From: a virus
Reading direction: 5' to 3' (one strand)
UHGV virus genome: UHGV-1356910
DNA: 20,203 nucleotides
In this document: piece by piece, positions 1-20,203 of the stretch
Numbering within the stretch: the first letter of the stretch is position 1
How the letters are laid out: every line of letters begins with the position of its first letter
Notes under the pieces: model-generated
Database searches by the model: none
What the model was told of the DNA's origin: nothing
Seen by the model: the letters and a program-made list of their open reading frames with translations, nothing else
Program-made: the position numbers and the translations under genes

Positions 1-1
1 T

Positions 2-244
2 ACGTCAGAATGGTTTTGTTGCCATCAGTTCGTAATATCCGGCGCTCCATGTGTCGACGGTGGGTTGTTGTACAAAGTGACGTTTACGCAAATCGACAAC
101 GAAGATAACGCATTCACTGTGATTTACACGTCGCCAGCGATGGCGCAGAAGTGGGTGGATCTGCACAGGCTATGTGGTTTTCGTGTTGAGTGGGGGTGCT
201 ATGAGATGCGATGCAGATGGCATCATCGGGGGGATGAAAAATGA
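2..244 (+). CDS. Hypothetical early protein, 5' end outside the window
   Basis: Reading frame is open from the window edge to a TGA at 242-244 that overlaps the ATG of the next gene (ATGA coupling). Cys-rich product; no homolog recognised. Confidence 0.35.
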   Translation, partial: TSEWFCCHQFVISGAPCVDGGLLYKVTFTQIDNEDNAFTVIYTSPAMAQKWVDLHRLCGFRVEWGCYEMRCRWHHRGDEK

Positions 245-618
245 GCACTACGCTTGAGCAATGGCTGGAACAGCAGCACGGCAAAATTGATGTTGATTGC
301 GGCTGTGTGAGCACTGAAACGCTTATGCACTGGATGCGTGTGGCGTATGAGGCTGGCAACTCTCCGGTAACTCCGGAGAGTTGGATAAGCTGTAGTGAGC
401 GAATGCCAGAAATGGGAGAGCGACAATGCTATGTGTTAGCTGCTGACTTTAAAAACAACTACCCACCAAACATCCCCAACACTCAGGTCGGCGTATATGG
501 CGACTGGTTTAATGATGGCAAGCCCACTTGGGATGACGGTGATGGCGAAGACCTGTATCTCAAGGAGGTAACCCACTGGATGCCGCTGCCAGAACCGCCG
601 CAGGAGGTGAATCAATGA
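241..618 (+). CDS. DUF551-like prophage protein
   Basis: 125-aa ORF with a G-rich Shine-Dalgarno before ATG 241. C-terminal VTHWMPLPEPP-type motif recalled as typical of DUF551 proteins found near xis-int in enterobacterial prophages. Confidence 0.75.
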   Translation: MSTTLEQWLEQQHGKIDVDCGCVSTETLMHWMRVAYEAGNSPVTPESWISCSERMPEMGERQCYVLAADFKNNYPPNIPNTQVGVYGDWFNDGKPTWDDGDGEDLYLKEVTHWMPLPEPPQEVNQ

Positions 619-698
619 GCTGGCCTGATGCAATCGTAACTCTGGGGGTGGTATTCGCAGCAGCGTTTGTTGTGTTCTCGATTTGTCGATGGGGATAA
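615..698 (+). CDS. Small hydrophobic peptide (27 aa, MSWPDAIVTLGVVFAAAFVVFSICRWG)
   Basis: ATG 615 overlaps the upstream stop (ATGA) and follows a strong AGGAGGT Shine-Dalgarno at 603-609 with 5-nt spacing. Product is a single predicted transmembrane helix. Below the ORF-track length cutoff. Confidence 0.45.
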   Translation: MSWPDAIVTLGVVFAAAFVVFSICRWG

Positions 699-702
699 CC
701 AC

Positions 703-17196: not shown

Positions 17197-17837
17197 TTGT
17201 CGGTATACCTCTCTCGTTTGCTCAGTTGTTCAGGAATATGGTGCAGCAGCTCGCCATCACCACAGTAAATGGCGGCATGATTCGGCACCGATGAACCAAA
17301 ACAGCACAGCAGCACATCGCCCGGTTGTGCTGATGACAACGGCACCTGATACAGCCCTGTGGCCTCCAGATTATCCAGATAGAGATTCTGACCGTGACGC
17401 CACCAGTCATCCTCGCGATGAAAATCCGGCATCTCAATCCCCGCCAGATGATAAGCATCCCGGAACAGCGTGTAACAGTCCGTCACCCCGTGCTCAAAGC
17501 GCCGCCCGGTGAGATGCGGCACACAGCGGAACTTATGAATCGTCCCCCGGCAGACCAGCCACCACGGCAAATCACTCTGCACCTGCAGCCGCCGGTCGGC
17601 CTCACTCAGCCAGGGCAGACCACCGGGGTGGCTGTGGACCAGCGCCACAATCTCACCCTGCATTTCTGCCTGCAGCCAGTCTTCCGGCGACATACGGAAA
17701 TACGCCTCCGGCTCACCGGAGATATTCACGCAGGGGAAATATCTTTCCCCCTCCGGCGTGCTTACCACGAAGCCGCACGACTCCGCTGGCGCACATCGCC
17801 GGGCGTGCGCCAGAATCGCTGATTCTGTCTGTGTCAT
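17094..17837 (-). CDS. K: Tail tip assembly protein K (MPN/JAMM plus NlpC/P60 domains)
   Basis: JAMM-like HSHPGG...SEAD motif and NlpC/P60-like Cys context (VTDCYTLF); near-identical to lambda gpK as recalled. Lambda K is annotated with a later start; the full ORF is reported here. Confidence 0.9.
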   Translation of the reverse strand: MTQTESAILAHARRCAPAESCGFVVSTPEGERYFPCVNISGEPEAYFRMSPEDWLQAEMQGEIVALVHSHPGGLPWLSEADRRLQVQSDLPWWLVCRGTIHKFRCVPHLTGRRFEHGVTDCYTLFRDAYHLAGIEMPDFHREDDWWRHGQNLYLDNLEATGLYQVPLSSAQPGDVLLCCFGSSVPNHAAIYCGDGELLHHIPEQLSKRERYTDKWQRRTHSLWRHRAWHASAFTGIYNDLAAASIFV

Positions 17838-17842
17838 GGGAT

Positions 17843-18541
17843 TTACTGCGAAAGTTTGTTAATGGAAAGGAAGCCGCCAAAGTTGCCGACGTTATTGCGG
17901 AACTTACAACCGCTCAGGCATTTGCTGCATTTATCCTTCGTGATATCGGACGTTGGCTGGTCATATTCATCCGCGACCGCCGGACCGTGATAACCGCACT
18001 CATCGCCGCGATAGGTCCAGGTGCAGGTGTTGGCCAGCATGATACGTCCCGGAAAAACAGCGCCGTCCGTTTCCGTCGGCGTGGACAGTACAAAAGAGGC
18101 ACTCACCGCGCTCAGTTCGCTGCACTGCTCAATGCGCCAGCGGCTGATCACCTCCTGCTCCGGATCGGCGTCACTGTTTCCGTTGACGAAGTTCACCGCA
18201 TCCAGAAAACGGGCGTAAACCTTACGCCGGACCACCGTTCCACCGACCAGACTCTGCAGATCTTCCGCCATCCCGGTGACCATACCGTACAGGTTAGAAA
18301 CCGTCAGCGTGGGGCGCGTACTGGTGCCTTTGCCATTCAGTTCAAAACCACTCCCCTGAATGGGATACGGCTGATACTGTCGCCCCTGCCAGGTGACCGG
18401 CTCACCTTTTTCGTTCTGCTCATTACAGAAAAAATAACGTTCTCCACCGACCTCTGTCAGATCGATTTCCCAGAGCACCACGCTGGCCGACTGCTCCGCA
18501 CGGGTGCATTCATTCAGTGTTTCCTGCCGGATATCCTGCAT
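17843..18541 (-). CDS. L: Tail tip protein L
   Basis: 232 aa starting MQDIRQETLNECTRAEQSASVVLWEIDLTEVGGERYFFCNE, lambda gpL-like. Start overlaps the M stop. Confidence 0.92.
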   Translation of the reverse strand: MQDIRQETLNECTRAEQSASVVLWEIDLTEVGGERYFFCNEQNEKGEPVTWQGRQYQPYPIQGSGFELNGKGTSTRPTLTVSNLYGMVTGMAEDLQSLVGGTVVRRKVYARFLDAVNFVNGNSDADPEQEVISRWRIEQCSELSAVSASFVLSTPTETDGAVFPGRIMLANTCTWTYRGDECGYHGPAVADEYDQPTSDITKDKCSKCLSGCKFRNNVGNFGGFLSINKLSQ

Positions 18542-18870
18542 CAGTTCACCACCTGTTCAAACTCTGCGCTGAACTCAACACGCAGCATACTGACCCGCGA
18601 CGACCATTTTGCGCAGGTCACCTTTATCTGCCGCCACTCATAAGGCGGCGTCCACAGAAAGGATTTCCAGCCCCCGTGCTCAGCCAGAAACGACTCAAGC
18701 GCCGTGGCCTCCCAACGGGGAACAGAAAGCGTCACGCTGTACGTTTTCAGGTCGGCATTCAGCCCGGCAGGCGCTCGCTGGGAATAGCCATCACCAAAGC
18801 GCACCTTTCTTACGGAAGGGGCCGAAGCCACATCCATACCGGGTTTCACTTTCCAGCGGAAGGTTTTCAT
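18541..18870 (-). CDS. M: Tail tip protein M
   Basis: 109 aa starting MKTFRWKVKPGMDVASAPSVRKVRFGDGYSQRA, lambda gpM-like. Start overlaps the H stop. Confidence 0.92.
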   Translation of the reverse strand: MKTFRWKVKPGMDVASAPSVRKVRFGDGYSQRAPAGLNADLKTYSVTLSVPRWEATALESFLAEHGGWKSFLWTPPYEWRQIKVTCAKWSSRVSMLRVEFSAEFEQVVN

Positions 18871-20203
18871 CGTCCACCTCCGGAGAACAGACCACCATCG
18901 CGCATCTGCCCGGTCACAACATCCATTGCCGCCTTACGGGCTACGTCATAAACAGCCTTCAGTGCCTGTGGCCCTATCTGACCGTTCGTGCCGTCGTTGT
19001 TAATCACCACATGGTTATTCTGCTCAAACGTCCCGGACGCCTGCGACCGGCTGTCCGCCATACTGCCCGGTGTACCGACATAACCGCCGGTGGCATAGCC
19101 GCGCATCAGCCGGTAAAGATTTCCCACGCCAATCCGGCTGGTTGCCTCCTTCGTGAAGACAAATTCACCACGGTGAACAATCCCCGCTGGCTCATATTTG
19201 CCGCCGGTTCCCGTAAATCCTCCGGTTGCAAAATGGAATTTCGCCGCAGCGGCCTGAATGGCTGTACCGCCTGACGCGGATGCGCCGCCACCAACAGCCC
19301 CGCCAATGGCGCTGCCGATACTCCCGACAATCCCCACCATTGCCTGCTTAAGCAGAATTTCTGTCATCATGGACAGCACGGAACGGGTGAAGCTGCGCCA
19401 GTTCTGCTCACTGCCGGTCAGCATCGCCGCCATATTCTGTGCAATACCATCAAAGGTCTGCGTGGCTGCACTTTTTACCTGCGACATACTGTCCGTGGCG
19501 CTCTCTTCCCACTCACTCCAGCCGGACTTCAGGCCTGCCATCCAGCTCCCGCGAAGCTGGTCTTCAGCCGCCCAGGTCTTTTTCTGCTCTGACATGACGT
19601 TATTCAGCGCCAGAGGATTATCGCCATACTGTTCCTTCAGGCGCTGTTCTGTGGCTTCCCGTTCTGCCTGCCGGTCAGTCAGCCCCCGGCTTTTCGCATC
19701 AATGGCGGCCCGTTTTGCCCGTTGCTGCTGTGCGAATTTATCCGCCTGCTGCGCCAGCGCGTTCAGGCGCTCCTGATACGTAACCTTGTCGCCAAGTGCA
19801 GCCAGCTGGCGTTTGTACTCCAGCGTCTCATCTTTATGCGCCAGCAGGGATTTCTCCTGTGCAGACAGCTGGCGACGTTGCGCCGCCTCCTCCAGTACCG
19901 CGAACTGACTCTCCGCCTTCCACAAATCCCGGCGCTGCTGGCTGATTTTCTCATTTGCTCCGGCATGCTTCTCCAGCGTCCGGAGTTCAGCCTGAAGCGT
20001 CAGCAGGGCAGCATGAGCATTGTCTTCCTGACGATCGCCCGTAGACACCTTCACGCCGGACTGTTTCGGCTTTTTCAGCGTCGCTTCATAGTCCTTTTTC
20101 GCCGCCGCCATCAGCGTGTTGTAATCTGCCTGCAGAATTTTCCCGTCCTTCAGTGCCTTGTTCAGTTCTTCCTGACGGGCGGTATATTTCTCCAGCGGCG
20201 TCT
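18867..20203 (-). CDS. H: Tape measure protein H, C-terminal part (5' end beyond the window)
   Basis: Frame stays open from 20111 to the window edge (..TPLEKYTARQEELNKALKDGKILQADYNTLMAAAKKDYEATLKK..). C-terminus ..QMRDGGLFSGGGR is lambda gpH-like. Confidence 0.92.
   Translation of the reverse strand, partial: TPLEKYTARQEELNKALKDGKILQADYNTLMAAAKKDYEATLKKPKQSGVKVSTGDRQEDNAHAALLTLQAELRTLEKHAGANEKISQQRRDLWKAESQFAVLEEAAQRRQLSAQEKSLLAHKDETLEYKRQLAALGDKVTYQERLNALAQQADKFAQQQRAKRAAIDAKSRGLTDRQAEREATEQRLKEQYGDNPLALNNVMSEQKKTWAAEDQLRGSWMAGLKSGWSEWEESATDSMSQVKSAATQTFDGIAQNMAAMLTGSEQNWRSFTRSVLSMMTEILLKQAMVGIVGSIGSAIGGAVGGGASASGGTAIQAAAAKFHFATGGFTGTGGKYEPAGIVHRGEFVFTKEATSRIGVGNLYRLMRGYATGGYVGTPGSMADSRSQASGTFEQNNHVVINNDGTNGQIGPQALKAVYDVARKAAMDVVTGQMRDGGLFSGGGR

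Follow-up and report, generated by a model that had tools for sequence, protein, structure and literature searches.

In the genome of phage lambda, the genes J, lom, stf and tfa are followed by the b region, attP, int and xis, and the tail and int-xis operons are transcribed toward each other, converging on a dispensable region that holds attP. Here we describe a stretch of viral DNA, genome UHGV-1356910 (20,203 nucleotides, all of it hereafter called the window), which has the same gene order and the same convergent transcription, and in which the region between the two operons carries ompT and other accessory genes beside an attP for the Escherichia coli (E. coli) gene yecE. The window is very probably a continuous piece of one lambdoid temperate phage genome in its unintegrated form, in the permutation that is joined at attP. 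A phage genome that crosses attP with its cargo alongside is already known biology and corresponds to the textbook map. Lambda has J, I, K, L, M, H, Stf and Tfa proteins of the same families, and its attP likewise consists of a core with flanking arm-type sites. It differs in that the window integrase belongs to another lineage (437 amino acids, with an Arm-DNA-bind_2 domain) and targets yecE rather than the attB between gal and bio, that the P-arm sites of the window lie inside the int coding sequence, and that the content of the b region is unrelated.

The integration module is closest to that of phiP27 (NC_003356), a phage integrated in yecE that carries stx2e. Its int and xis share 95% nucleotide identity with those of the window, and it has the same 11-bp core and the same layout of the P' arm. 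The match is confined to window positions 703-2738, however: the structural genes of phiP27 are different, its tail-fibre genes adjoin attR, dinI and the ompT cassette are missing beside its attP, and its core has C where the window has T. Phage CharmingMan (PP925830) and pFJMB80382_2 (NZ_AP025933), a closed 40-kb circle, share xis, a 437-amino-acid int, an attP with the same arm sites, dinI and, on the other strand, genes for a tail fibre and J, with about 79% identity across the junction. They differ from the window in that their cargo is dinI only and their replication module is another one, and the host genus of pFJMB80382_2 is Enterobacter. For the remainder of the window the nearest relatives are the phages ev243, 2G7b, PhiR29_1 and PhiR29_2, which match 3755-20203 at 95-98%, including ompT, the hydrolase, the methyltransferase and the tail genes, and which place the cargo between the tail fibres and attP-int just as the window does. 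These phages have a 387-amino-acid integrase and an attP with the 3' half of the tRNA gene argU, whereas the window retains the distal P' arm of that site only as a fossil and has a yecE-type int-attP-dinI module instead.

The reading frames and Pfam assignments bear out the convergence described in an earlier note on this DNA: xis and int on the + strand (1104-2709) and the tail operon on the - strand (10217-20203) both point at a 6.9-kb block of low guanine-plus-cytosine (GC) content. Between int and the first tail-associated open reading frame this block spans 2710-9638 (6,929 bp) and has 41.0% GC, against 56.7% in the tail genes. The gene order is early-left genes, xis, int, attP, b-region cargo, tfa, stf, J, I, K, L, M and H, and neither the list of reading frames nor Pfam shows a host gene in the window.

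The evidence that carries the assignment comes from a megablast comparison with 5,426 complete E. coli genomes. In strain EC9682 (NZ_CP095271), positions 2219722-2222412 correspond to window 48-2738 with a single mismatch in 2,691 bp, at core position 2735, and window 2728-15889 matches with 0 mismatches over 13,162 bp, at record positions ending 2266492. The remaining part of the window, 15889-20203, matches the same prophage at 99.56%, with 19 mismatches within the I-K-L-M-H segment. The two halves of the window are therefore found on the same strand at opposite ends of one yecE prophage, 46.8 kb apart. In EC9682 the int end adjoins the 3' part of yecE, followed by yecN and cmoA, and the cargo and tail end adjoins yecD and the first 105 bp of yecE. 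Since the halves are the two ends of one prophage, the window is the right end of such a prophage joined to its left end, and the resulting P-core-P' is attP. The interior of the EC9682 prophage is complete, with a LexA-like repressor, helicase/primase, Q, lysis genes, terminase, portal, capsid and tail. The same arrangement is found in about 14 other complete E. coli genomes, and the exact Int is present in about 16. The order expected of an unintegrated phage (J-stf-tfa-b region-attP-int), one of the arrangements that the earlier note had considered, is thus an exact fit. As a separate observation on the EC9682 prophage, the part outside the window carries genes for a scabin-related ADP-ribosyltransferase and a subtilase-family AB5 toxin B subunit directly after the antiterminator Q, which is the position of stx in Stx phages.

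The attP core, to which no strand is assigned, lies at 2728-2738, where the two EC9682 matches overlap by 11 bp, and reads TTAACTGTGTG; it is these 11 bp that the phiP27 record annotates as both attL and attR. Comparison with the uninterrupted bacterial locus, which the earlier note had proposed as a way to define the core, did so: TTAACTG(T/C)GTG occurs once in the intact yecE of K-12, as TTAACTGCGTG, and the flanks diverge on both sides. When attP, both prophage junctions and attB are aligned, the homology switches at the core, as reciprocal site-specific recombination predicts. Position 2735 is T in attP and in the yecD-side junction, and C in attB (K-12 yecE), in the int-side junction and in phiP27. 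This allele travels with the P' side, which would place strand exchange to the left of 2735, within TTAACTG (2728-2734). At 7 bp, this stretch appears to be of the size expected for the overlap region of a tyrosine recombinase.

Candidate arm-type sites flank the core on both sides. The P arm has two copies of (A)TGTCCCA at 2646-2663 on the + strand, inside the 3' end of int, and the P' arm has five direct repeats of TG(T/C)CCCA at 2856-2914, also on the + strand. The heptamer TGYCCCA occurs 11 times in the window; seven of these copies are no more than 270 bp from the core and share one orientation. The longer ATGYCCCA has 6 matches where 1.84 are expected. The attR arm of phiP27 has the same layout of P' sites, at +129 to +181 from the core; CharmingMan keeps four of the five P'-arm sites at 79% overall identity and conserves the P-arm sites as well; and the P-arm sites and arm layout are also conserved in a metagenome contig, L006. 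The layout is thus kept in phiP27, CharmingMan and L006 despite 5-21% divergence. Because conserved TGYCCCA repeats flank the core, we regard the junction as a genuine attP. Together with the arm-binding domain of Int (PF12167, Arm-DNA-bind_2, 9.6e-24 in Pfam), the core and its putative binding sites would form an attP of classical lambda-type architecture. The earlier note had placed an att-like sequence at 2710-2940. The sequence is real, and that interval contains the core and the P' sites, but the two P-arm sites lie just outside it, within int.

Partial relatives of this junction occur in other phages. In phi80 and mEp237, the core and P' arm (window 2716-2918) are matched at about 76%, beside an annotated 'N-terminal fragment of DUF72' that is yecE-like, and PPompW records with an inserted Stx2a phage match at about 70% across the junction. 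Judged from these alignments, the matches look like fossil yecE'-core-P' junctions inside other phages, comparable to the attB in PP_1 of Nakamura et al. 2021.

Records that are not integrated show the arrangement of the window as a continuous unit. The order xis-int-attP-dinI followed by tail genes on the - strand recurs in CharmingMan, an isolated phage, and in a 40,175-bp 'plasmid' of Enterobacter hormaechei, a closed molecule which is evidently a phage circle; it is also found in a metagenome contig. Phage PhiR49_2 likewise shares int and both the P and the P' arm, in a record linearised at the core. Among the 5,426 complete E. coli genomes, 1,259 carry one half of a 511-bp query centred on the core, but 0 have it contiguously, so that chromosomal tandem arrays of this type of phage are very rare at best. 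The exact junction had no match in a scan of IMG/VR or in a scan of GTDB genomes, and a metagenome scan for it returned only one relative, of 3.8 kb. Nor did megablast of the phage, E. coli and plasmid collections recover the source contig. The exact Int protein is found in 473 collection blocks, and all 25 contigs that were read have it beside yecE; the exact J protein is found on 15 contigs, all of them prophages; and all 66 contigs read with the exact Int, DinI or J are integrated contexts. Because the junction is contiguous in none of the complete genomes and the int-attP-dinI-tail order is present in non-integrated records, an unintegrated phage genome is much more likely than a tandem lysogen as the source of the window. 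The sampled DNA would, we infer, have been circular or packaged.

The arrangement can be accounted for by a conventional lambdoid cycle. The N-terminal domain of Int would bind the TGYCCCA arm sites, two in P and five in P', and Int would exchange strands within the TTAACTG of the core with the identical sequence in yecE. Integration would then part P from P', so that int would come to lie next to the yecE 3' part, 46.8 kb from the cargo and tail end, which would adjoin yecD, and excision directed by Xis would rejoin P and P' to give the junction seen in the window. The two operons would converge because, as in lambda, int and xis are read leftward from an early promoter and the tail genes rightward from a late promoter. 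The DNA left between them would be dispensable and would gather independently transcribed morons of low GC content.

Several points weigh against this assignment. The window lacks flanks, and a tandem lysogen or a prophage within a prophage gives an identical P-core-P'. A perfect 643-bp duplication at the start of J might be a sign that the source was misassembled. The counts of promoter-like and terminator-like sequences in the cargo are not above shuffled expectation, and the independent transcription of each moron is a proposal. Window 1-47 has no match in the EC9682 prophage; this, with the 19 mismatches in 15889-20203, shows the source phage to be a mosaic, recombinant relative of the EC9682 prophage and not the identical prophage.

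The alternative that survives best is a polylysogen junction, in which the int of one copy adjoins the cargo and tail end of the next, either in tandem copies (or two phages with yecE-type att sites) or in a prophage integrated within another at a fossil yecE'-core-P' site. It would yield exactly P-core-P', and the window itself holds nothing against it. Sequences that resemble yecE'-core-P' are present in phi80, mEp237 and the PPompW prophages, and both tandem and prophage-in-prophage integration of yecE-targeting phages have been documented (Nakamura et al. 2021, PMC8112680). We nevertheless consider a polylysogen unlikely, given the absence of the junction from all of the complete E. coli genomes, to be set against the 1,259 with a half-site and the approximately 16 with the exact int. 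Moreover, for 13 kb to the right of the core the window agrees at 100% with an end of the very EC9682 prophage that carries this int, and one phage is therefore the simplest reading.

A second alternative is that the junction was made during assembly or by chimera formation, through the fusion of reads from the two sides, attR and attL, of an ordinary lysogen with one prophage. Such an origin gains some support from the perfect 643-bp duplication, which was seen neither in EC9682 nor at the places shown for the exact J, the prophage relatives that were compared. The 11 bp of shared core are, however, too short to misjoin contigs at normal k-mer lengths, the join falls exactly where reciprocal site-specific recombination predicts, the T allele included, and the same junction is found in an independent metagenome contig and in phage and circular records, so that we regard an artefact as quite improbable. 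The earlier note had also allowed for two unrelated prophages, one contributing int and the other the tail genes, around a chromosomal island with ompT; the bare geometry and the position of K-12 ompT at the edge of a defective prophage would agree with this, but it is refuted, and an island is rejected as the source of the cargo, for several reasons. In about 14 genomes the two halves terminate one and the same intact prophage of 46.8 kb, within whose att boundaries, beside yecD, the cargo is situated; the cargo also occurs in isolated phage genomes, K-12 yecE is intact with none of the cargo there, and the window holds no host gene.

On the preferred reading, that of an unintegrated phage genome, the block between int and the tail genes is accessory cargo of the phage. 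Its content is a dinI-like gene, a GNAT acetyltransferase, a helix-turn-helix (HTH)-cupin regulator on the - strand, ompT, an alpha/beta hydrolase, two tfa relics on the - strand and a ybcY-like methyltransferase. The dinI-like gene (3001-3249, + strand; Pfam 1.4e-19) is the first cargo gene beside attP, and a gene of this kind has the same place after int-attP in CharmingMan and in the circular Enterobacter replicon. Upstream of it, at 2942-2985 on the + strand, two LexA-box-like CTGT-N8-ACAG motifs overlap a promoter-like site with TTGACA. This motif has 3 matches in the window, against 0.37 expected, and two of these are the ones before dinI, a pattern that suggests SOS control of the dinI-like gene.

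The genes that follow form an accessory cassette of 5.1 kb (3355-8496, both strands, 40.6% GC), which comprises a fossil attP, the GNAT acetyltransferase (4064-4501, + strand; Pfam), the HTH-cupin regulator divergent from it (4526-5110, - strand; Pfam), ompT (5608-6561, + strand; Pfam) and the alpha/beta hydrolase (6748-8232, + strand; Pfam), which is predicted to be secreted on the basis of a signal-peptide call. L006 has the same int-attP-dinI and is otherwise collinear, but lacks the cassette, with position 3354 joined to 8497. Further, ev243 lacks 3840-5494, and phiP27 and CharmingMan lack the cassette altogether. The cargo is thus variably present between collinear phages, and it differs from the tail genes in its GC content (40.6-41.0% versus 56.7%). 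Terminator-like hairpins are found at 3501-3524, after dinI, and at 8253-8288, after the hydrolase, although the overall counts of such elements are not above those in shuffled controls.

Repeats at the edges of the cassette indicate where it entered. A 3' fragment of tfa is repeated (8497-8571 and 9546-9620 belong to one family), as is the sequence that normally follows tfa (3311-3345 and 9447-9481 belong to another), and these repeats bracket the 5.1-kb segment with the GNAT, regulator, ompT and hydrolase genes. Lying as it does between a tfa 3' fragment and post-tfa sequence, the cassette is an insertion at the end of the tail-fibre operon, in the equivalent of the lambda 'b region'. The tfa relics occupy 8416-8721 and 9501-9620 on the - strand, and the ybcY-like S-adenosylmethionine methyltransferase between them is at 8778-9446 on the + strand; all three were identified by Pfam and by the annotation of EC9682, and repeat family D2 belongs to this segment.

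Phage genomes confirm that these genes travel with phages. Window 3755-20203 is matched at 95-97% by ev243, 2G7b, PhiR29, PhiR49_1, PhiR30_1 and PhiR26_1, in which an omptin or OmpT protease is annotated. The ev243 and 2G7b matches further include an annotated alpha/beta (lactone) hydrolase, and ev243 also has the methyltransferase. In PhiR29_1 and PhiR29_2 the GNAT gene and the regulator (97.9%) are present together with ompT. The suggestion that ompT, the secreted hydrolase, the GNAT gene and the regulator are phage-borne thus holds, with the GNAT gene, the regulator and ompT carried by PhiR29_1 and PhiR29_2, and ompT with the hydrolase carried by ev243 and 2G7b. The evidence consists of phage records; searches of the literature on ev243 and on phages with ompT turned up no specific account of ompT as a moron carried by active phages.

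The cassette also contains the remains of a second attP, at 3655-3839 on the + strand. This stretch aligns with the attP of the Shigella serotype-converting phage SfI, in whose record a 46-bp core is marked, and the SfI relatives SfII, SfV and SfIV are about 91% identical over the same stretch. The integration target of SfI, SfII and SfV is thrW, and window 3650-3837 is about 91% identical to the int-distal part of their attP, P' arm included. As in the window, the cargo of these phages (the gtr genes) lies directly beside attP. The window differs in that its core is decayed and no cognate integrase lies beside the fossil. The P' arm is intact, and the decayed core, of tRNA-Thr type, lies at about 3670-3712. 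Compared with the 3' half of the thrW tRNA, the sequence of which we checked against the annotated SfI core, the fossil core has approximately 8 mismatches and 1 gap in 44 nucleotides. The distal 85 bp (3755-3839) are common to the argU-type attP of ev243 and the right end of prophage DLP12. We had considered these 85 bp alone as a relic of an argU-type att site, a reading that was dropped because the SfI alignment shows a fuller homology, over 3655-3839, to a tRNA-Thr-type attP. Scans of the window called no tRNA gene and no Rfam family, since the fossil is too decayed or too partial. The stretch 3655-3839 is a fossil and not a working att site.

The live yecE-type attP (2646-2914) and the fossil (3655-3839) are less than 1 kb apart. 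The simplest history is that the cargo once lay beside a tRNA-type attP-int module, which would later have been replaced by a phiP27-type int-attP-dinI module; replacement of modules in this way is ordinary lambdoid mosaicism. A broader scenario, in which int-attP replacement has allowed a cassette of OmpT, hydrolase and GNAT genes to pass among lambdoid phages with three different integration specificities, is one that we put forward as a speculation, and a rather doubtful one. Should att fossils that have been kept in this way serve in addition as secondary integration sites, the window might itself be a stacked junction (tandem or prophage-in-prophage).

The early-left end of the window, upstream of xis, contains two accessory genes that were assigned by Pfam, encoding a DUF551 protein (241-618, + strand) and a DUF4222 protein (open reading frame 667-945, annotated start at about 703, + strand). 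Over this region (241-945) the EC9682 prophage has the identical sequence (100%) at its int end, in a match that begins at 48. The excisionase (1104-1340, + strand) is of the DUF1233 family (Pfam 9.5e-33) and is annotated as an excisionase or excisionase-family protein in EC9682 and phiP27. It is followed by the phiP27-type tyrosine integrase of 437 amino acids (1396-2709, + strand), in which Pfam identifies Arm-DNA-bind_2 and Phage_integrase domains.

On the tail side, all genes are on the - strand. Two small tail-fibre-associated reading frames (9639-9932 and 9942-10220; list of reading frames, Pfam and EC9682 annotation) are followed by the side tail fibre (10217-12286; Pfam phage_tail_N, 9.9e-69) and the tip attachment protein J (12339-15821). 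Beyond J are the tail genes I (16525-17097), K (17094-17837), L (17843-18541) and M (18541-18870) and the 3' part of the tape measure gene H (18867-20203), which is open to the end of the window; J, I, K, L and M were assigned by Pfam. Within the side-tail-fibre gene, 11559-11912 consists of degenerate repeats (families D3 and D4) spaced in multiples of 42 nucleotides, and a strong AT skew of -0.54 at 11501-12000 coincides with these repeats.

The duplication at the start of J is a perfect tandem repeat of 643 bp, 15246-15888 and 15889-16531, on the - strand. The duplicated unit consists of the first 583 bp of J and the 60-bp spacer between I and J, so that the full J is retained. The repeat creates an extra reading frame upstream of the intact J (15814-16464, - strand), encoding a 216-amino-acid N-terminal (FNIII-A) fragment of J. 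EC9682 has a single copy of the unit, and the duplication is likewise absent from the places shown for the 15 contigs with an identical J; an exact-protein look-up of the product of the extra reading frame returned no record. The duplication may be real or may be an assembly error.

The cargo block also bears on the ompT gene of E. coli K-12, which lies in the defective prophage DLP12 in the order tfaD-ybcY-tfaX-appY-ompT-attR. The tfaD'-ybcY-tfaX segment is 96.8% identical to the window, ompT is 96.2% identical, and the 85 bp that lead up to the right boundary of DLP12 are 95.3% identical. DLP12 differs in being defective and located at argU, in having appY in place of the hydrolase, and in lacking the GNAT gene and the regulator. 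Described in the earlier note as lying at the edge of DLP12 near relics of tfa and ybcY, K-12 ompT is indeed there, and the K-12 segments match the window at 96-97%. With segment identities of 95-97% between DLP12 and the window, K-12 ompT is what remains of a phage cargo block of this kind.

The window should accordingly be annotated as a lambdoid phage genome that crosses attP, with a phiP27-type integrase that targets yecE, rather than as an island of the chromosome flanked by two prophages. The genes for OmpT, the secreted hydrolase, the GNAT and regulator pair and the methyltransferase are accessory genes of a phage that seems to be intact, and they move with it. A phage-borne ompT explains the presence of K-12 ompT at the edge of DLP12 and leaves current understanding unchanged; its carriage by phages bears on the spread of ompT, which encodes a virulence-associated protease, among E. 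coli.

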